From positions 1,312,001 through 1,376,000 of the forward strand of contig OZ245006.1 of assembly GCA_965223545.1 (NCBI GenBank): a stretch of 64,000 nt of DNA, read 5' to 3'. The stretch's first letter is position 1. Every line of letters starts with the position of its first letter. The notes under the pieces were generated by a model. The model was not told where the DNA came from and made no database searches. It saw only the letters and a program-made list of their open reading frames with translations. Positions 40,054 through 49,842 of the stretch are shown here, one piece after another. Origin of the DNA: Planctomycetota bacterium. Its GTDB lineage: Bacteria > Planctomycetota > UBA1135 > UBA2386. The position numbers were made by a program, and so were the translations under genes.

Positions 40054-42708
40054 ATGCGCACACCGCTGGGCATGGCTCTCTGTGTCCTCGCCGCTTGCTC
40101 GAGCGGTTCGGATGGCGTGCCGCCGCCCGGTGAAGACCCGGGCACCACCAGCACCGGCGGGACCGGGGGTACCGGCGGAACTGGGGGTACCGGGGGCACT
40201 GGCAGCACGGGGGGCTCTGGCGGAGGGTCCAGCGGCTCGGGCGGGGGATCCACACCGGCGCCGCCGCCTCCGCCTCCGCCGCCGCCTCCGCCAGCGACCG
40301 CCGAGGTCGCGGGCATCTTCCTCCCCGTGGCGATGTCGGGGACCGTTCCGCTGCGCTTCCGACTCCGCGACGACGGCAGCGTCGCGGCCGACGTGCAGGT
40401 CGAGTTCTCTCGCGACGGCGGAGCGACGTGGCTCGACGCCCACGTGGTCGGCCCATTGACCAACCTGGCGACCTCCCCGACCGGCGTCGACCACTCGTTG
40501 CAGTGGGACACCATGGCCGACGCCGGCTTTCGCGGTGAAGTCGGCATCCTCTTGCGGGTGACGCCCTTCCAGGGAGGGGTGAGCGGCACCGCGCGCAGTG
40601 TCGTCACTCCGGTCGCCGACAACTGGGCGGCCGCCCTCGCCGCCGCCGATTCGCAGATGACGCACTACGGTCCGCTGGACCCCGCGACGATCGCGCTGGC
40701 GGAGACGTTCGATGTCGTCGTCGTGCATCCCGAGTCCGGCGACGTCAGCGTCGCCCAGGTGCGCGAGATCCAGGACGGTGTCGATCCGGCCGACGCCAGC
40801 GACGACGTGTTCGTGCTCGGCTACATCTCGATCGGCGAGGACCTGCGCACGGTGGGGATGACCGACGCCGAGATGCTCGCCGACCCGCGCTTCGTCGGCG
40901 ACGGCACCGGGCCGCGCATCGACCCGCGTGGCCCCAATGCCGGCGGCCAGCCACTGACCGGCTTGGACCCTCTCGGCCTGCCCTCCAACGGCGGCACCGG
41001 GTTCGCGGCTTGGTATCTGGACGACAACTCGGTCGACAACAGTCCGACCAACGTCGGCGATGGGCTGCCGGACAGAAACGCCATCTTTGGCGGCTGCTTC
41101 GTCAATGCAGGCGACCCACAGTGGTTCGAAGCACTCGACCAGATGACCTACGACGGCATCGACCGCGTGCCGGGACTCCGCGAGCTGATGACGGTCGGAT
41201 TCGGCCGGGGCTACGCGCTGGACGGCGTCTTCCTCGACACGTTGGACACCTGTGCTCCCAACTCCTACACCAACGGCAGCAGCCCCAACCAGTCCGAGTT
41301 CGAATGGACAGCCGCGGGCTTTGGCGATTTCGTCGAACGCCTGCGCAATCGCTACCCGCGCAAGCTGATTCTGCAGAACCGCGCGCTCTTCTTCTTCGAC
41401 CCTCGCCACCCGCACTTCGAGGTGCACCCCGGCGACTGGGTCAACTTCGTGTACTTCGAGAGCTTCCGGCTCAACTCGAACGCGAGCGAGGAGTACAATC
41501 CGTACTTCTACGGCGACAACCGGTTCAACGTGTCGCCCAAGCTGATCGCCGAGTCACAGCGGCCGAACGGTTTTCGCGTGCTCTCCCTCGGCTACGCGGA
41601 AGGGCCGCCCGGCACGATGGCGTTGGAGACCCTGATCGGCCAGTCGACCGTCGGCCTCGCGTCGCTGACCGAAGACGTCGTGCAGACCGAGGACACGCTC
41701 GGGTATCTCCACTACATCACCGACGCGGGCCTGATCTTCGCCAACGACTTCGTGCGCCAAACCCGCGCGACCATCGACACCACGCCACCGGCCTGGACCA
41801 GCATCTACAACGCCAACAACCCGCCATTTCCGACGCCGCCATTGGCGCCGACGCCGCGCGTCGGCATCCAGCAGGTCGTGCCCGGTCCCGACTGCGCAGT
41901 GGTGCGCTGGGACGTCGCGATCGACAGCAACCCACTGGGCTACGCGCTCTACCATCAGGACACGCCGTTCGACTTCGTCAACGATCCCAACCTCAGCGGC
42001 GCAACGCGCACGGTGCTGACGCCGGGCGACGTCGCTGGCTATGCCAATCACTGGTCGGCGCCCCTGCCGTTCGAGGCCACTGTCACCGGCCTGACCGCCG
42101 GCACCCTGTATCACTTCTGCATCCGGGCCTTCGACATCCACGGCAACGAGGAGCAGAACCAGGTCGCCCTGAGCGCGACGCCGATCGGCATGGTGCCGAT
42201 CACCATCGATGGCGACTTCTCCGACTGGGCCATCGTACCGATCGCGCACACCGACCCGGCGGACGTGCCGGATTCGGCGGGACCCGACTGGCTCCAGCTC
42301 AAGATCACCAACGACCAAGACAATCTCTACCTGCGCTACACCTCGGAGAACGCCTTCAACCTCGACGGATCCCCCACCTACGGCTGGTCGCGCACTCTCC
42401 TGTTCTTCGATGTCGATGACGACCCGACAACGGGCTACCCCGTCACCGGCGCTGTAGGCAGCGAACTCCTGCTCAGCGGAGACGGCCTCTTCGCGCAGAC
42501 CGCCACTCAGTTCAACGCGGGCTTCCTGCGCACCATCGACATCAACCCGACCACCAGCGTCACCGAGTGCGAGCTCGCCATCCCCCTCCTCTGGATCCGC
42601 GCCGCCCACCCCACCGCCAGCCGAATCCGCATCGAGTTCGTCAACGACGACGTCAGCGACTACGCCCCCGACAACGCCCCGCTCTACTACACCCTGGCAA
42701 CTCGCTGA
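40054..42708 (+). CDS. Large lipoprotein: Gly/Thr and poly-Pro linker, GH114/PelA-like barrel, FnIII domain, C-terminal carbohydrate-binding-like domain
   Basis: Lipobox LAAC; GYISIGED, DGVFLDTLD, LQNRAL, FES; VTGLTAGTLYHFCIRAFD; ITIDGDFSDW. Confidence 0.75.
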   Translation: MRTPLGMALCVLAACSSGSDGVPPPGEDPGTTSTGGTGGTGGTGGTGGTGSTGGSGGGSSGSGGGSTPAPPPPPPPPPPPATAEVAGIFLPVAMSGTVPLRFRLRDDGSVAADVQVEFSRDGGATWLDAHVVGPLTNLATSPTGVDHSLQWDTMADAGFRGEVGILLRVTPFQGGVSGTARSVVTPVADNWAAALAAADSQMTHYGPLDPATIALAETFDVVVVHPESGDVSVAQVREIQDGVDPADASDDVFVLGYISIGEDLRTVGMTDAEMLADPRFVGDGTGPRIDPRGPNAGGQPLTGLDPLGLPSNGGTGFAAWYLDDNSVDNSPTNVGDGLPDRNAIFGGCFVNAGDPQWFEALDQMTYDGIDRVPGLRELMTVGFGRGYALDGVFLDTLDTCAPNSYTNGSSPNQSEFEWTAAGFGDFVERLRNRYPRKLILQNRALFFFDPRHPHFEVHPGDWVNFVYFESFRLNSNASEEYNPYFYGDNRFNVSPKLIAESQRPNGFRVLSLGYAEGPPGTMALETLIGQSTVGLASLTEDVVQTEDTLGYLHYITDAGLIFANDFVRQTRATIDTTPPAWTSIYNANNPPFPTPPLAPTPRVGIQQVVPGPDCAVVRWDVAIDSNPLGYALYHQDTPFDFVNDPNLSGATRTVLTPGDVAGYANHWSAPLPFEATVTGLTAGTLYHFCIRAFDIHGNEEQNQVALSATPIGMVPITIDGDFSDWAIVPIAHTDPADVPDSAGPDWLQLKITNDQDNLYLRYTSENAFNLDGSPTYGWSRTLLFFDVDDDPTTGYPVTGAVGSELLLSGDGLFAQTATQFNAGFLRTIDINPTTSVTECELAIPLLWIRAAHPTASRIRIEFVNDDVSDYAPDNAPLYYTLATR
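40147..40292 (+). repeat. Coding low-complexity repeat (GGT tripeptide run then poly-Pro)
   Basis: Degenerate 9-nt units encoding GGTGGTGGT..., then ccg/cct codons encoding PPPPPPPPPPP. Confidence 0.8.
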
Positions 42709-42715
42709 CCCCCGC

Positions 42716-43414
42716 CTACGCCGGCCGCTCAGCGAAGTCCAACCGCCCCCGCGACCGCCGCCACCCACCCTTCAGCAGCCAGGTCCGCGCCCGCACCGTC
42801 GGCCGCGCCACCGGCTCCGACAGCTCCACCACCTCGCGCCACCCGTCGAACCAAGGCCCCGACGAGTAGACGTCGATCGCCTGCCGCGGCCGCTGCCGGT
42901 GGTGCCAAGCATTCTGCAGCACATACACCAACGCCCGCCGCACCTCCGTCGGCGAGCGCAGCACCCGCTCGTGGAACCGCTCGGCAAACACCCGCCCCGA
43001 GCGCCCCCACAGCTTGTTCAACCCCCGCGCCATCCGCACCAGCAGCCCGGTCATCCCCCGCGTCAACGCCTCCCGATCCTTCGCCTCCACCAGAAGGTGC
43101 AAGTGATCGCGCTGCACCGAGAACTCCACCAACCGAAACCCGAACCGCCCACACCCCGCCCGGATCCGCTCCACCAACATCCAGTACGTCCGCGCATTCC
43201 GTAAGCCCGGCAACCCCCGACACAACCGCACCGTCACGTGCAACGGATACCGCGCCACCAACGCCCCCCGCGCCAAGTGCGGCACCGTCTCATCACTCAC
43301 CTTGGGCCGACCAGCCCCCTCCCGAGCCCCACCCCACTGCCGAAACGGCAGCTCACCCTGCACCACCCCACGGCGCCGTCCACCGCGCCCCGATCGAACT
43401 GCCTTGCTCGTCAT
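42716..43414 (-). CDS. REP-associated tyrosine transposase-like (HUH, Y1_Tnp/IS200 superfamily)
   Basis: PLHVTVRL, EFSVQRDHLHLLVEA (HUH), VFAERFHERVL, ALVYVLQN (catalytic Tyr), YSSG..FDGW; no tnpB nearby. Confidence 0.85.
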   Translation of the reverse strand: MTSKAVRSGRGGRRRGVVQGELPFRQWGGAREGAGRPKVSDETVPHLARGALVARYPLHVTVRLCRGLPGLRNARTYWMLVERIRAGCGRFGFRLVEFSVQRDHLHLLVEAKDREALTRGMTGLLVRMARGLNKLWGRSGRVFAERFHERVLRSPTEVRRALVYVLQNAWHHRQRPRQAIDVYSSGPWFDGWREVVELSEPVARPTVRARTWLLKGGWRRSRGRLDFAERPA

Positions 43415-43541
43415 TTGAATTAGCGACCTTATCAAAGAGGGAGTCCGCATGCAAGAACCCGAAAGGGAATCCGCGAAAGCGGCCGGCGATTCGCACGCAG
43501 CCTGCTCCCACCACCTCCAGCTCCAGAGCTGAAGGCTCGCC

Positions 43542-45089
43542 TCACCACGCCGAGTAGCCGCGGGGGGTTGCCCCCCCGCAGCTCTCACAGAACCGGACTT
43601 GTGGGTCACACATCCGGCTCTTCAGGACGGTATCCCCCAAAGGGGGCCGCCAGTCGTAGCGGCGCTCGTCCCAGAGCTTGGAGAGCGACACCAGCCGCTC
43701 AGCAAACCACTGATTGGGATAAGCGCGTTTGATCGCTCCCGAGTTGCTCTGCCACCACGTGCCACGCCGGCCAAACGCGGTGCGTGCAGCCGACTGCCAG
43801 CTGCACCCACGGGCGACAAGGTCTCGGAAGAGGTATCGCGGTCTCTTCTTCTGCCGAATGATGATCGCCCGCAGGCGTCGTCGAATATGGCCATCGAGAT
43901 TCCGCAAGGTCCGCCACGCGGCCTTCGTGATCAGCTGGAAGTAGCCGATCCAACCACGGAGGTAACGGTTCAGTCGTTCGATGCACCAGGACATCCGACC
44001 ACCCCAGGACCGCGGCGTAAGCTCACGGATTCGGGCGTCGATGCGATCCAGAGTGCGACGGGACAACTGCACCGTCAGCCAGCCCTTTCGAGTTGCGCCT
44101 ACGCGAAACCCGAGGAAGTGCCGGCGATGGGCCAGGTCGACGGAACTCTTCGCTTCGTTCACTTTCAGTCGCACGCGACGTTCGATGAACCTGCGAATCG
44201 AAGCCATGACCCGGTGTCCTGAGCGCTCGCTACCGACGTAGATATTGCAGTCGTCGGCGTAGCGCACAAAACGCAACCCGCGTCGTTCCAACTCCCAGTC
44301 CAATTCGTCCAGGACGATGTTGGACAGCAGAGGTGATAGCGGGCCGCCCTGGGGCGTTCCTTCTTCCGTGATGACGCGGGTGCCATCTGGAAGAACCACG
44401 TTCGCTTTCAGCATCAGGCGGATGATCCGCAGCACCCGACGGTCCTTCACCTTCTGAGCCAGCCGGTCCAGGAGGCGTTGGTGATGGACACGGTCGAAGA
44501 ACTTCTCCAAATCGATGTCCACCGTGTACCGCCGACCCTGCTTCACGTAACCCGCTGCTTCGGCGATCGCTGTGTGGGCTCCCCGCCTCGGCCGGAAGCC
44601 GTGGCTGCTGTCGTGGAACGTCGGGTCGTAGATCGGCTCCAGAATCTGGCGCACGGCCTGTTGGACCCAGCGGTCGATCACGGTTGGAATCCCGAGACCC
44701 CGCTGCCCACCACTGGGCTTCGGGATCCACACCCGACGAATATCGCCGGGCGCGTAGGTCTCCATGAGCAGAGCATCGCGGAGTTTCGGGAGCAGGTGTT
44801 TCGCATGACGCTTGACCTCTGACACCGTCTGTCCGTCGACGCCCGGGGCGCCCTTCTTGCTTACGACATGTGCCAGTGCGCTTCGCAGGTTGCCCTGCTC
44901 CGCGACCAGCTCCAGCAGATGGCAGTAGCCGTCCGCTGGCGGCGGAGCCGATTCCGATCGATGGCTGCAATCCGTCGTAGGCACCGACGTGGACTTCGTG
45001 GCAGATTCGTCTGCCCTTCCGGCCACGCCGTCCCCTTGCGGGCTCTCGGCGAAAGCGAACTGCAGTTGCCGTGGTTTCGGCTTTCTCAT
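43542..45089 (-). CDS. ltrA: Group II intron reverse transcriptase/maturase, no endonuclease domain
   Basis: GAPGVDG, RGLGIPTVIDR, SHGFRP, DLEKFFD, GTPQGGPLSPLLSNI, RYADDCNIYV, X-domain LRGWIGYF. Confidence 0.96.
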   Translation of the reverse strand: MRKPKPRQLQFAFAESPQGDGVAGRADESATKSTSVPTTDCSHRSESAPPPADGYCHLLELVAEQGNLRSALAHVVSKKGAPGVDGQTVSEVKRHAKHLLPKLRDALLMETYAPGDIRRVWIPKPSGGQRGLGIPTVIDRWVQQAVRQILEPIYDPTFHDSSHGFRPRRGAHTAIAEAAGYVKQGRRYTVDIDLEKFFDRVHHQRLLDRLAQKVKDRRVLRIIRLMLKANVVLPDGTRVITEEGTPQGGPLSPLLSNIVLDELDWELERRGLRFVRYADDCNIYVGSERSGHRVMASIRRFIERRVRLKVNEAKSSVDLAHRRHFLGFRVGATRKGWLTVQLSRRTLDRIDARIRELTPRSWGGRMSWCIERLNRYLRGWIGYFQLITKAAWRTLRNLDGHIRRRLRAIIIRQKKRPRYLFRDLVARGCSWQSAARTAFGRRGTWWQSNSGAIKRAYPNQWFAERLVSLSKLWDERRYDWRPPLGDTVLKSRMCDPQVRFCESCGGATPRGYSAW

Positions 45090-45582
45090 CCTGTCACCCC
45101 CTTCGCTCCACCGGCATTACCCGGCTTCATCACTACTACGGGGTGATCCGACTTCTCTGCATGCCTTGGTGGGTCGTCGTTGCCTCCTCCCCACCTACCG
45201 CTCGAAGCGGACACACAGAGATCTCCCTGGGTAAGAACGCAGAGTTTCGCGCCGCCGCCGATTCCAGTACTCCGAGGTCGCGACTGGATATCGGGCGTCA
45301 CGTTGGATGGCACGCTGACCCAGACCTCGAGAGCCTTACGGAACTTCGCTTTCGCTCGGTGCTGCGCTGCGTCTAGGGCTTCCATCCCACACGACCTCGC
45401 GGGAACAGCACGGCACGGTGTCCGTCCTGTTCTGGCATCCCGGATCAACACCGCGCACCGCCCTCTCGGACGGCACACGGCTCCCCTTTCTGCCTCGTGC
45501 AGCTGCCTTCGACTCATGGTTTCCTCCAGTACGGATCCATAAAGAACTTTCATCTTCAACTCTGCGCCCATGCCAGGCGCAA
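43549..45582 (-). mobile_element. Group II intron, class C-type
   Basis: 5' end TTGCGCCTGGCATGGGCG; domain V GAGCCGGATGTGTGACCCACAAGTCCGGTTC; domain VI GCTGCGGGGGGGCAACCCCCCGCGGCTACTCGGC; candidate EBS1 loop CATC (45306-45309) complementary to 5'-exon GATG; lower GC than the flanks. Confidence 0.88.
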
Positions 45583-45767
45583 CATCACCGACGACAGCGG
45601 TCCAAGACGAGGCACGGGTGCGACCGCCGCCGACGGTGACGGAGCTGAGGCGAGTGCGCACTACTCCGTGACGAACGCCCGATCTTGAATCCGTGACCTT
45701 CAGTTCGAGCCGCGCACCCAACCGCTGCTCTCGAGCCGGAGGCCGGGGAGCGTGCTTCTGGCACCGT

Positions 45768-46424
45768 TCAGAGGGCGCCGATGACGCCGATCAGCAGGAT
45801 CACGCCGATGGCGAAGCGAGCGACCTGTTTGCCTTGGCTGACTTCGGTGAGGGAGACGTCGCGGATCAGGAGGGGGTTGCCGGCGTGGTTGGCGGAGAGT
45901 CGGTAGACGCCGGAGAGGACGGTGGCGCGGCCTACGGTGGCTGGTGCTTCGATGCGGAACGGGACGTCGAACTGGGCGCTGGAGCCGGGGGGTACGGTGG
46001 CGATGGTCACCGGGGCGTGTTCGGCGCGTTGGAGATCGGCGAGCTGCTGGCTCTCGGCCTCGGGTGTGCGGGGGCCGGGTTCTCGGCGTTCGAGGTCGAA
46101 GTCGCTGCCGCGAATCACCCACATCTGGTCGCTGTCGTTGAAGGCGGTGAACGCGATCTCGAAGCGCAGGACGTGGCGGTCGGCGTGCTCCGGACATGGT
46201 CCACCGAGGGCGTAGGTGCAGTCTACCGACTCGGCCCTGGGTGCCGGCTCGCCCGGGGCCGCGTAGTCCAGGACCTCGCGGTGAAACCGGGTGCGCAACG
46301 CTCGATCGCCGCGCGCGGTGAAGCCACTCTGCGGGTCGACGACCAGCATGGGCGTCGTCTGGCACCCCGCTAGCGCGAGCGCCAGCAACAGCGCTGCGAA
46401 ACCCATCCATCTCGAGCCGCACAT
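45768..46424 (-). CDS. Hypothetical lipoprotein with C-terminal hydrophobic segment
   Basis: TGATG coupling to the upstream gene; LALAGC lipobox. Confidence 0.65.
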   Translation of the reverse strand: MCGSRWMGFAALLLALALAGCQTTPMLVVDPQSGFTARGDRALRTRFHREVLDYAAPGEPAPRAESVDCTYALGGPCPEHADRHVLRFEIAFTAFNDSDQMWVIRGSDFDLERREPGPRTPEAESQQLADLQRAEHAPVTIATVPPGSSAQFDVPFRIEAPATVGRATVLSGVYRLSANHAGNPLLIRDVSLTEVSQGKQVARFAIGVILLIGVIGAL

Positions 46425-47374
46425 CACCACCACCTCCGCAGCTGCTCGCTCAGCGTGTTCAAGTCGAAGCTCAGCATCAGTCCCATGGTCGGCCCATAGT
46501 CCGTGCTGTTGAGAATGTCGTTCCAGATCTCGAACGTGAGCCCCGTCGCCCACGCGAACCGGGCGCTGATGAAGCGCGTGCCGATCGGTTCGTCGTCGAA
46601 GTCGACGAAGAAGCCGCTGTCGTAGGTGAACGTCAGACCGACCTCCGGGTTGCCCAACCACTGCCACACGGTCGACGAACTCTCGATGCGCCGCGGCTCG
46701 TAGCCGACGTAGGCCTGCACGATGTTGTTGAAGTGCGCCAGGTTGTCGAACGCATCGCCAGGCCGCGGAAACGCGACGCGGTCCTGCAAACCGAGCTTCA
46801 GCGACCATTCCGGAATGCGCAGCTCGAATCCGGCTTGCGCGAACGGCTCCTGGTAGAGCGTGCCGAGGTTGGCGCCGGCGCCGGCAAAAACCCTGGTGCG
46901 CCAGCGGTCCCCCTCGACCACCTCGGGCTCGAACAAGCCGACACCGCGCCACTGCCAGTGCAGCGCGCCTCCGCCGTAGTAGTCGACCTCGTCGCGAGAC
47001 GCTCCCACGGGAACGCGATCCAACCCCCACGAGTTGTGCAGGTATTCGTTCTGCAGGAATCGCGTCGGCTGATCGCTCGTCGGCCCCCCGCCGGCCCACA
47101 CCGAGAACGTCACATCCGGGAGCGCCGGCAGACGGTCGGCCACCGACAGCGTGAGCATGTTGAAGCCCATCGACTCGTCGATGCCGTTGTACTTGGTGCC
47201 GGTCTTGCTGAATTCGGTGAAGCGGTTGAACGAGAGCGTCGCGCGCACTTCGGGGTGCTGCGGAGGGAACGTGTTCGCCCCCCAATGCGGATCGGGTGCG
47301 CCGCCCTGGGCAGCGACCGCGGCGCCAAGCGCTGGCATGAGCGATAACGAGATGAGACAGAGACGTTTTCGCAT
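46424..47374 (-). CDS. Outer-membrane beta-barrel, possibly LpxR (lipid A deacylase)-like
   Basis: Signal ...AVAA-Q; amphipathic strands; GGPTS...LQNEYLH resembles the LpxR Q-x-x-x-H region. Function tentative. Confidence 0.5.
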   Translation of the reverse strand: MRKRLCLISLSLMPALGAAVAAQGGAPDPHWGANTFPPQHPEVRATLSFNRFTEFSKTGTKYNGIDESMGFNMLTLSVADRLPALPDVTFSVWAGGGPTSDQPTRFLQNEYLHNSWGLDRVPVGASRDEVDYYGGGALHWQWRGVGLFEPEVVEGDRWRTRVFAGAGANLGTLYQEPFAQAGFELRIPEWSLKLGLQDRVAFPRPGDAFDNLAHFNNIVQAYVGYEPRRIESSSTVWQWLGNPEVGLTFTYDSGFFVDFDDEPIGTRFISARFAWATGLTFEIWNDILNSTDYGPTMGLMLSFDLNTLSEQLRRWW

Positions 47375-47514: not shown

Positions 47515-49842
47515 ATGACGTTAGAACGAATCGCTGTCTCCGCCGCGCTCGTCGGCTCCACTCTCGTCGCACCGCTGGCGGCCGCGCAGCCGCAGCCGTC
47601 CCAGAACACCGATCCGGAGCGTTTCCGCGTCCCGATCCACCGCCAGGCCAACGACCCGGCCGGCGGCGACTACGGCGTCTGGGCCAGCGGCGACACCTAC
47701 AAGGTGTCGTTCCACGACGGCATGACCTTCTACCCATTGCTCGGCCCCGGCGCGCCCGAGAACCTCCCGGTCCGCTGGCAGACCACCGCCATGCTGCGGG
47801 GCGGCCAACGCCTACTCGACACGGGCACTGCCGTGGCACCGGCGACCTGGCACTCGGACCTGCGCTTCGAGTATCGGTTTGACGGGTTGACCGAGGCCTA
47901 CGACATCCGGCCTGACGGCGTCGAGCAGAGCTTCGTCCTCTACGCGCCGCCAGCGGGCGATGGTGATCTCGTCGTCGAGGGCCGCCTCTCCGGCAGGCTG
48001 TCGGCCGACGACCGCAGCCCATCGCACGGCGAGATCGCCCTGCGCGACGCCGCTGGGCGCGCGCTGGTGACTTACGGAGCGGCGACCGCGATCGATGCCG
48101 CCGGCCGGCGGCTGCCGATGCAGGTCGCGACGCAAGGGGACCGGGTCCGCCTGCACGTCCCGGACAGCTGGCTCGACTCGGCCAGCTATCCCGTCGTCCT
48201 CGATCCGCTGCTGTCGAGCACTCAGCTGGCCGTCGCCTTGATCCTCGGCACCGTGGGCGAGACCTCGATCGGGGTCGACGTGGAGAGCACGTACCTCGGC
48301 GGCGACGGCGTGCTGGTGGCCTACACCCGCAGCTTCTCCGCCAACGACCACGACCTCTACGTCCGCATGCTCGAGCACGACTGGAGCAACGGAAGCGTCG
48401 TCTTCAGTGATGTCACCACCAACTGGTCGACGCGGAACCCCGACGTCGCCTTCATCGGTGGGCCCGACCGCTGGGCGGTGGCGATCCAACGGGACTTCGC
48501 GACCCAATCCGGAATCCGAGTCGTGCTGCACGACGCCGGTGACCGCACGCCAAACAGCGGCACGGTGCTGTTCGCCAACTTGCCGTTCGGCGAGACGCAC
48601 ACCAATCCGGCGATCGGCGGCACCGCGAACCTCACCCTGCAAAGCGGCAACCGCGGGCTGCTGGTCTACCAGCGAGATCCCGGGGGCAACCCGGCGATGT
48701 CCAACACATCGCGCATCGAGGGCATCCTGGTCGACGCCAACGCGGTCAGCCTCGGCACTCCGCGTACGCTGCGGCGGCCTCCGATCGGCGTACTCGGTGG
48801 CTACGACCAAGAGCGGCCGGACGTCAGCCATTCCACCGACGCCAACGACTCCTGGATCGTCGTCTTCCAGGAGCTGTCGCCAGGCGTTTTGCTCGACGAT
48901 TGGGACGTGATGGCCTTGCAGGTCGACTCGAACGGCGCCGTGCGCGGATCGGTCACGGTCGGTGAGGACGGTTCGACCACGACGCGCCACTGCCTGGCGC
49001 CGCTCGTCGACGGCCAGTCCGGCCGGCACGCGGTCACCTTCGTGCGCACCGACACCTACACCAGCGCCGTCCCCACCGGCACTGCGATCGAGGTGCAGAG
49101 GCTCGACTGGGCCAACGGCGGCCGTCCCGCCCTGCGTGGCATGCGGCGCCTCGCGAGCCGGCGCGGCGCCACCCTGCGCAACACCGGCCTCGCGTTCGAC
49201 ACGCTCAGCGACGATCACTGGGCCACCCTGTTCGTCGACACCGGAAGCAACGGCGACACCGCCACTCTGATGCGCTTGGGCCACACCGGCGGCATCGTCG
49301 AGCAACATCTGATCAACGCCGGCAGCGCGAACGTGATCGACCCGACCGTCGCCTACAGCAACTACGGTCAGAAGTTCCTGCTGACCTACGGGACCGATGG
49401 CGCCAACAGCCCGGTCCTCGGCGCGACGCTCGCCCACGACCCGACCAACGGCGCCAACCAGTACGGCGCGTCCTGCGGCGGCGACAACGACTTGACCGGA
49501 CCGTGGGCCTGGGCCGGCTCGGAGAGCGTGCGCTGCCGGCTGTTCTACGCAGCACCCAACGCGCCCGCGGTGGTCTTCCTGTCGCTGGCCCCGGCCGCGG
49601 TGCCGCTCGCCGGAATCGGTATGCCCGGCTGCACCCTGCTGGTCGACACCGGCGCGGGCTTCGTCGCGTCGTTGCCCAACGGCACCAACGCCAACGGCGA
49701 TGCTTGGCAGGACATCCCGCTCAGCGACGCTCCGGCCTTCATCGGCGACTTCTACGTGCAGTGGGCCTACATGGACGCCGGCGCGCCTCGCCCGCTCAAG
49801 ATGTCGGCGAGCCAAGGGCTACACGTTCGCGTGCGACCGTGA
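47515..49842 (+). CDS. Large secreted beta-rich protein with Cys-containing C-terminal domain
   Basis: Signal ...LAAA-Q; N-domain ending YPVVLDP; repeated P-D/A-V/I blades; C-terminus YGASC...GMPGCTLLV...YVQW...SQGLHV. Confidence 0.8.
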   Translation: MTLERIAVSAALVGSTLVAPLAAAQPQPSQNTDPERFRVPIHRQANDPAGGDYGVWASGDTYKVSFHDGMTFYPLLGPGAPENLPVRWQTTAMLRGGQRLLDTGTAVAPATWHSDLRFEYRFDGLTEAYDIRPDGVEQSFVLYAPPAGDGDLVVEGRLSGRLSADDRSPSHGEIALRDAAGRALVTYGAATAIDAAGRRLPMQVATQGDRVRLHVPDSWLDSASYPVVLDPLLSSTQLAVALILGTVGETSIGVDVESTYLGGDGVLVAYTRSFSANDHDLYVRMLEHDWSNGSVVFSDVTTNWSTRNPDVAFIGGPDRWAVAIQRDFATQSGIRVVLHDAGDRTPNSGTVLFANLPFGETHTNPAIGGTANLTLQSGNRGLLVYQRDPGGNPAMSNTSRIEGILVDANAVSLGTPRTLRRPPIGVLGGYDQERPDVSHSTDANDSWIVVFQELSPGVLLDDWDVMALQVDSNGAVRGSVTVGEDGSTTTRHCLAPLVDGQSGRHAVTFVRTDTYTSAVPTGTAIEVQRLDWANGGRPALRGMRRLASRRGATLRNTGLAFDTLSDDHWATLFVDTGSNGDTATLMRLGHTGGIVEQHLINAGSANVIDPTVAYSNYGQKFLLTYGTDGANSPVLGATLAHDPTNGANQYGASCGGDNDLTGPWAWAGSESVRCRLFYAAPNAPAVVFLSLAPAAVPLAGIGMPGCTLLVDTGAGFVASLPNGTNANGDAWQDIPLSDAPAFIGDFYVQWAYMDAGAPRPLKMSASQGLHVRVRP

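Follow-up and report, generated by a model that had tools for sequence, protein, structure and literature searches.

A group II intron of a distinct class C-like lineage that probably uses GC-rich palindromes of mobile elements as insertion sites

The window analysed here is a stretch of 64,000 nt from the 8.1-Mb, 69.7% GC genome of a Planctomycetota bacterium (contig OZ245006.1, positions 1,312,001 to 1,376,000), in which a group II intron of 2,034 nt (43549..45582, minus strand) interrupts one arm of a long palindrome upstream of a gene for a Y1 (single-tyrosine) HUH transposase. Comparison of its sequence with genome copies and relatives suggests that the intron is probably an endonuclease-less, IIC-like (class C-like) group II retroelement of a distinct lineage, which has switched from the T-tracts of terminators to GC-rich palindromes. 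The element was delimited from the sequence, its genome copies and a match to RF02001, has the termini 5′ TTGCG and 3′ CTCGGC, and single contigs in read data (runs X5 and X7) span its 5′ and 3′ junctions. Among the joints listed for these data none belongs to the empty allele, which weighs neither way.

Removal of the intron rejoins an 85-nt hairpin with 33-bp arms, a 19-nt loop, three mismatches and three G-T pairs (counted by hand), the ligated exons folding at -35 kcal/mol and the outer 9-bp arms being split between 45654-45646 and 43544-43536. The 5′ exon (45583..45654, minus) comprises the 5′ arm, the loop and the inner part of the 3′ arm, and its inner stem, 16 bp in this copy, ends directly before intron-binding site 1 (IBS1), GATG (45583..45586, minus). 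The 3′ exon (43536..43548, minus) is the outer part of the 3′ arm and starts with IBS3 (43548). From the end of the hairpin to the ATG of the Y1 gene (43414) is 121 nt. An earlier reading of the window from its letters alone (the sequence-only reading) had proposed an intron splitting a hairpin arm in this way, and the intron, arms, loop and distance it described are all present in the sequence.

The genome holds 14 copies of the intron, 99.6-100% identical with 16 variable columns, of which 13 lie in one hairpin family and one in a gene. A census of the family, in which introns were removed by script and a profile from the 13 sites was applied at E below 1e-10, gave 26 full hairpins with arms of 33-38 bp, palindrome lengths of 85-90 nt and folds of -33 to -47 kcal/mol. 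These comprise 13 of type A (the window type), 10 of type B and three of type C, with seven, four and two occupied respectively, giving 13/26. With 26 hairpins and 14 introns whose flanks could be compared, the hairpin is not unique, and the 13 unoccupied copies agree with the reconstructed site, the one at the intron-less coordinate 7610091 differing only by an extra C in the loop. The intron boundaries are therefore fixed, and the rejoined hairpin postulated by the sequence-only reading exists as an empty site in the same genome.

At all 14 sites the intron follows GRTG, with the next base G at 12 and A at two, and at every one of the 13 hairpin sites (13/14 overall) a stem of 10-16 bp stands directly upstream of IBS1. 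Insertion within the hairpins is in the 3′ arm, 14, 17 or 20 nt from the loop. The used strands of the 26 hairpins offer 70 GRTG↓R sites (summed per-hairpin counts; the arrow marks the insertion point) against 98,621 genome-wide, and the concentration of 13 of 14 copies in these hairpins is not chance. The better-folding strand is used at 13 of 13 hairpin sites, a preference much of which reflects site availability, since in type A the opposite strand has no site but GGTG↓A. The hairpin had been described as lacking the character of a terminator or attC site, which agrees with the finding that none of the 14 sites in the genome is behind a terminator and that no AAC/GTT box is present. An ordinary terminator was rejected as the target, the only terminator-like site found by a scan of the window (43460) lying downstream of the intron rather than at the insertion site. 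Likewise, an attC target was rejected on the missing AAC/GTT box at the stem foot, the separate branch of the reverse transcriptase (RT) and the GRTG↓R sites.

Two mobile elements carry the hairpin. The Y1 gene of the window (42716..43414, minus; 232 aa, motifs DHLH and YVLQN) has 12 full-length copies and one fragment in the genome at 92-98% nucleotide identity, with synonymous differences exceeding non-synonymous ones, and for 23 of the 26 full hairpins a copy begins no more than 1.1 kb downstream. These hairpins are arrayed as A and B units in alternation, with periods of 257-355 nt, on one side of the gene only in this genome, and the repeat-unit linker of the window (45655..45720, minus) is common to the other arrays upstream of Y1 copies. 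On the right, the sequence that the Y1 copies have in common ends with the stop codon; the left ends vary. The arrays hold 11 of the 14 introns, at eight of 13 Y1 loci. The remaining three hairpins, those of type C, belong to a 1,438-bp ISL3 element with no Y1 gene nearby (three copies; G000:C1 2607059-2608496, 3672920-3676388 and 5060156-5063625), where they are set 85 nt in from the left end, and two of the three are occupied by identical introns at the same site and with the same haplotype. From their sequences, these two may possibly derive from one event, a composite of insertion sequence (IS) and intron having moved as a unit. It is very improbable that the whole distribution arose in this manner, from a chance insertion or two that the Y1 or ISL3 carriers then spread by transposing. 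The shared site and haplotype of the ISL3-borne pair is what such a history predicts, but the Y1 genes differ by 2-8% where the introns differ by under 0.5%, and the introns occupy three registers, two orientations and three hairpin subtypes, with up to three introns in one array, such that carrier transposition is largely refuted for the Y1 arrays.

The sequence-only reading had also noticed that an intron loop carries CATC, complementary to the exon GATG, and this is the true exon-binding site 1 (EBS1; CAUC, 45306..45309, minus), placed inside an 8-nt loop (45311-45304) at the EBS1-loop position of the RF02001 alignment and confirmed by covariation. In 36 of 36 introns of the lineage described below the aligned EBS1 column (all rows) makes three or four pairs with the last four exon bases, four in 24 and three in 12 (shuffles: mean 11, maximum 19), while positions 5 and 6 extend the pairing in only 7/36 and 8/36. 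There are 28 different EBS1 sequences among the 36 introns, with a GC content of 65% in the lineage against 25% in other class C introns. EBS3, a C at intron position 316 (45267, minus), scored highest of the columns scanned against the opening base of the 3′ exon, with 21 of 28 Watson-Crick pairs where 10.1 are expected. No EBS2-like pairing stands out, a scan against exon positions -1 to -20 showing only the four EBS1 columns.

The RT/maturase open reading frame (ORF; 43542..45089, minus) has RVT_1 and GIIM as its only Pfam matches, and no endonuclease domain was found. It was placed among the best 77 genome loci and best 80 metagenome loci, out of at least about 600 matches each, plus plasmid references, with the class C references chosen by their targets and not by curated database names. 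In a FastTree of 193 rows it falls in a branch of 68 rows with support of 1.0, nested in class C with weak deep nodes, while in an IQ-TREE of 48 rows (a quick tree, the careful search being unfinished) the lineage comprises 20 rows at 99 by the Shimodaira-Hasegawa-like approximate likelihood ratio test and is sister to canonical class C, joined at 97. Identity of the RT to class C is 44-52% and to the attC references (L172 and L173) 39-40%, and the latter fall outside the lineage, elsewhere in both trees. The single class G (g1) reference, from Rhodococcus, is 37% identical and also outside. The lineage occurs in Planctomycetota, Acidobacteriota, Nitrospirota, Proteobacteria, Actinomycetota and Gemmatimonadota. 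In the closest relative among the loci fetched (L092, 75% identical) a transposase-like ORF is followed by a long hairpin, whose 3′ arm holds the intron. Within the order close relatives were found in 2/338 genomes in a stricter first look at E 1e-125, both 54-56% identical, and in 90 family genomes the intron ends were matched in G015 with one further weak match in G016. The G015 element, matched at its ends only, is a related multicopy intron collapsed in the assembly (C7, C18, C31, C15 and C21; L227, L230, L232, L240 and L242), lying in a different intergenic repeat of several hundred bases in a genome without a Y1 match. Head-to-tail tandem introns, a newer copy immediately following the 3′ terminus of an existing one, were seen in L026, L032 and L040.

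The ribozyme also sets the lineage apart. The domain V triad is AGC in 42 of 46 lineage loci (four not parsed) and CGC in 73 of 89 other class C loci (16 not parsed), none of which has AGC. In the window copy the triad lies in a domain V of 31 nt (43590..43620, minus), followed by a domain VI with a bulged A at 43555 (43551..43587, minus; from the fold). The intron ends are U...GC, in common with L092, in place of G...AU. The CGC triad defines IIC introns in PMC1702495, and an IIB intron with the same first-U, penultimate-G pair is described in PMC7923331. As judged from its sequence, the intron would work like a IIC intron while failing two of the features that define the class, the CGC triad and T-tract terminator targets.

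Targets were compared at usable, non-redundant 5′ junctions, available for 35 of 54 lineage loci and 64 of 116 other class C loci. T-tracts, taken as four or more T in the last eight exon bases, were found at 0/35 lineage sites and at 55/64 of the others. A contiguous helix of at least 8 bp joining both exons was present at 12/25 lineage sites (permuted mean 2.6, maximum 9) against 1/41 elsewhere. An earlier junction-spanning measure (at least six pairs in the minimum free energy fold) was not above permutation, at 19/25 against 14.9 (maximum 20), and the longest contiguous helix was adopted after that pair count. In addition, a GNA-capped mini-hairpin stands on the target strand at 21/35 lineage sites (shuffles 5.6, maximum 12), compared with 3/35 on the opposite strand and 5/64 in other class C. 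Among the lineage sites, those of L011-L013 are long palindromes on rhizobial plasmids, those of L017, L019, L020 and L098 are hairpins where transposase-like ORFs begin, and those of L026 and L029 are palindromes that we take to be like repetitive extragenic palindromes (REPs).

Several observations weigh against the reading that the lineage has specialised on such palindromes. At 13/25 lineage sites there is no 8-bp helix across the junction, the GNA motif is missing from the 11 Y1-array sites here (related sites share motifs), 9/64 other class C sites are also without a T-tract, some of them in REP-like palindromes, and kinship among the loci means that p-values overstate. In the host genome the fourteenth copy lies without a strong stem, antisense inside an ORF that its motif marks as probably sulfatase-like, and a replication bias was not significant, with 9/13 insertions on the lagging strand against 4/13 (p 0.12, a weak trend). 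Furthermore, a generic rule of a stem plus GRTG↓R over-predicts, since 90 unoccupied sites outside the family, 49 of them having G at +1, score as well as a typical occupied one. Specificity must gain from something further, be it purifying selection in genes, how long the full palindrome is, or another factor, and selection against gene insertions together with the full arms of 33-38 bp are the simplest reasons for the unused sites.

These points bear on the possibility that the intron shows ordinary class C behaviour, requiring any stem-loop and a 5-nt match, with EBS1 drifting to abundant hairpins in GC-rich hosts and no specialised lineage. In keeping with this, flanks are 72% GC in the lineage compared with 51%, some canonical class C introns lie in REP-like palindromes (L043, L153 and L165), the lineage is nested within class C in the FastTree, and IIC introns after terminators "or other inverted repeats" are already mentioned in PMC1702495. 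This explanation is nevertheless unlikely, given the difference in T-tracts and in the domain V triad noted above, and given that canonical introns in Acidobacteriota, Burkholderia, Actinomycetota and the host's own family (L004) still follow T-tracts.

The neighbouring gene had been called RAYT-like (REP-associated tyrosine transposase) and the hairpin a REP- or REPIN-like (REP doublet forming a hairpin) target of its HUH system. The distance of about 120 nt and the Y1 HUH character of the gene were correct, the protein having the HUH motif, a single catalytic tyrosine and a match to PF01797, and in 35 homologues H106 and Y164 are invariant and H104 nearly so. The RAYT assignment was not. Its score against NF047646 is 35 bits where the cut-off is 80, the tyrosine motif is YVLQNA (family consensus YVLxNARxH) with neither the Y---NP signature nor Y---Q or Y----Q, no GT[AG]G foot is present at the hairpin stems, and the hairpins are not dispersed. 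A canonical RAYT, single or low copy and not recently duplicated according to PMC5581495, was rejected on these grounds and on the 13 loci at 92-98% identity. By that criterion and by the Y---Q or Y----Q criterion for IS200/IS605 TnpA class 1 and class 3 TnpA-Y1 (PMC6006769), the gene on sequence grounds falls outside the canonical RAYTs and outside both of these TnpA classes, and is IS-like. The family to which it belongs (N-terminal WGG.R.GAGR, YVLxNA) is an unclassified multicopy one, seen at the 13 loci here and in G017, G040 and G048 and often labelled RayT by annotation. In relatives it forms tandem units of 1.4-1.7 kb, with inverted flanks of ~290 nt in G040 and G048, and the element may amplify by rolling circle.

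Matches to the Y1 gene were found in 19 of 60 relative genomes, with up to 47 per genome (30 in G017 and 47 in G048), and homologous hairpins flank homologous genes in two other genera, on both sides in G017 and also in G011. In G017, where Y1 units of 1.37-1.40 kb are in tandem, 20 of the 28 arm-motif matches listed (42 further matches being unlisted) lie by eye within ~610 nt upstream of a listed Y1 match. Among about 13 other genomes sampled, G040 and G048 have a different, shorter palindrome and the rest are without a long hairpin within 700 nt, so that the link between hairpin and Y1 gene holds for part of the family.

A stronger role for the HUH element, in which Y1 binding, nicking or rolling-circle copying exposes the single-stranded hairpin or provides a primer and the intron is a true hyperparasite, would fit the 11 of 14 copies in Y1 arrays at eight of 13 loci, the exclusivity that the generic stem rule does not explain, and a hairpin that is a conserved cis element of the Y1 family with tandem units in G017. 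It remains quite unlikely, as two of three ISL3 hairpins are occupied in the absence of a nearby Y1 gene (possibly one event), such that the HUH protein is not needed in cis, and as G017 and G011 have hairpin and Y1 gene but no match to the intron ends while in G015 a related intron occurs without any Y1 match. The Y1 family also gave no hit in the flanks fetched for the 54 lineage loci, many of which are short contigs, a result that goes against the co-occurrence of this RT lineage with RAYTs for which the sequence-only reading had suggested a check. The association with a RAYT is local, with an IS-like Y1 element as the partner. What stands of the proposed REP-like target is the 23 of 26 hairpins beside a Y1 gene, which also means that the hairpin is not unrelated to the neighbouring transposase. 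What does not stand is its likeness to a dispersed REP, and the dispersed REP-like family that the genome does have is free of introns. This separate family comprises 79 exact copies and 11 inverted doublets with a GTAC foot and a short hairpin (for example G000:C1 769838, 1404829 and 2214969), with no intron among the 79 copies. Across the doublets, 20 strands present GRTG↓A and a single one GRTG↓G, and the family may be unused because of the EBS3 mismatch. No cognate transposase of the family was identified in the genome, and one other Y1-type ORF, near C1:3914343, has none of these repeats within 2.5 kb.

The reading preferred here, a distinct IIC-like lineage that has moved to GC-rich palindromes, suggests the following course by analogy with class C. 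The ribonucleoprotein (RNP) would find a single-stranded DNA stem-loop followed directly by the 4-nt IBS1 and 1-nt IBS3, reverse-splice there and be copied from a host primer. The A-rich EBS1 loops suited to terminator T-tracts would have given way to GC-rich ones that match the arms of the long palindromes found in IS elements and REP-like repeats. In this genome EBS1 CAUC and EBS3 C would read GRTG↓G in the 3′ arm of the 85-90-nt palindrome, with the inner 10-16 bp serving as the IIC stem-loop and the outer arm presumably having to melt for pairing. The palindrome is the cis repeat of the multicopy Y1 HUH element, found also in the ISL3 end, and the two elements would multiply harmless intergenic landing sites, half of which were filled in a recent burst. 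A bolder form of this proposal is that the lineage is hyperparasitic and makes up a third class of IIC-like targeting, in which RT and RNA recognise structured single-stranded signals of mobile elements (long palindromes and GNA-capped mini-hairpins) and the 4-nt EBS1 is adjusted to whichever element serves as host. Here it would exploit single-stranded intermediates of the Y1 element, which is unclassified and self-amplifying, and split that element's recognition hairpin. This form is tentative and on balance rather improbable. The possibly undescribed target class put forward by the sequence-only reading survives in altered form, being neither terminator nor attC yet made up of GC-rich palindromes of mobile elements and REP-like repeats instead of the REPs of RAYTs.

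Several further features of the locus deserve mention. A one-base insertion near 43646 lengthens the RT reading frame of the window copy to 515 aa, against 488 aa in 12 others. It is common to the window copy and that at G000:C1:6127148 and takes the ORF through domains V and VI. The two copies share three other variants as well, and the variant has therefore moved at least once. A second RT (G000:C1:4530834-4531541) is unrelated, single copy and 37% identical over 238 aa. Between intron and Y1 gene, a TTGCAT-17-TAAGGT arrangement (43426-43454, minus) ends 11 nt before the Y1 ATG, and its second box is kept at 13/13 loci, which suggests a leaderless promoter downstream of the intron, although a consensus promoter scan did not call it. 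The flanking ORFs (40054-42708, plus; 45768-47372, minus; 47515-49842, plus; 884, 315, 218 and 775 aa) have no Pfam match, and the 884-aa gene is convergent with the Y1 gene, their stop codons being 8 nt apart.

If the preferred reading holds, the lineage would represent a widespread third specialisation of IIC-type introns beyond terminators and attC sites, spanning six phyla, and would lend itself, as a natural series, to the question of how hairpin shape is read by a IIC-type RNP apart from the 5-nt pairing. The AGC triad of IIA and IIB introns on a IIC-type body bears on which form of the ribozyme is ancestral. The genome itself is a ready test set, with near-identical hairpins of which 13 are filled and 13 empty, insertions at three registers, and decoy palindromes that were left unused, and the case also exposes an unclassified multicopy Y1 HUH element labelled RayT by annotation.

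With respect to known systems, no description was found of a lineage akin to class C whose specialised targets are palindromes of IS elements or of REP-like type, a novelty that is provisional given the incomplete coverage of primary papers and supplements. The structured class C targets named in reviews are terminators and attC sites (PMC4424553), insertion after "other inverted repeats" (PMC1702495) or "palindromic sequences" is already in print, and the unpublished new intron classes mentioned in PMC4424553 and PMC4028801 could include the present lineage. Class G (g1) members named in PMC3552965 are actinobacterial. With class C introns such as B.h.I1 (PMC1702495; PMC4424553) the intron shares an endonuclease-less RT, EBS1-IBS1 pairing of 3-4 bp, EBS3-IBS3, the lack of EBS2, a short domain V, a stem-loop before IBS1 and intergenic sites, and its 5′ end matches 14 of the 15 positions in the consensus that PMC4028801 gives for class C. 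It differs in its triad, ends, GC-rich EBS1 and own RT branch, and in targets that are free of T-tracts with insertion often inside the palindrome. The IIC-attC introns (PMC3001079; PMC7923331) differ in their RT branch, in TTGT↓T as against GRTG↓G sites, in the attC R boxes absent here and, for the two references from class 1 integrons, in a CGC triad, but they too are IIC-type introns specialised on the non-terminator hairpin of another mobile system, entering inside its 3′ arm. The REPtrons of RAYT/TnpA-REP and the TIRtrons of TIRYT (PMC6006769; PMC5581495; PMC3733652) share with the Y1 element a Y1 HUH protein and alternating palindromes beside the gene in arrays like bacterial interspersed mosaic elements, TnpA-REP 4ER8 being the only PDB match of the protein (E 0.024). 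REPtrons differ in the copy number, signature and foot given above, and in that the hairpins here are 85-90 nt long, confined to their carriers and, in this genome, in one-sided arrays. A P. putida group II intron lies near REPs in two of nine copies (PMC1525189). The IS elements that insert into REPs (IS621, IS1397, ISPpu9/10, ISPa11 and ISRm22; PMC1525189) are DNA transposases acting on dispersed host REPs, whereas the present element is a retroelement and its hairpin is confined to two IS-like elements, yet both use a repeated palindrome as a harmless target with many sites, entered at a fixed position.

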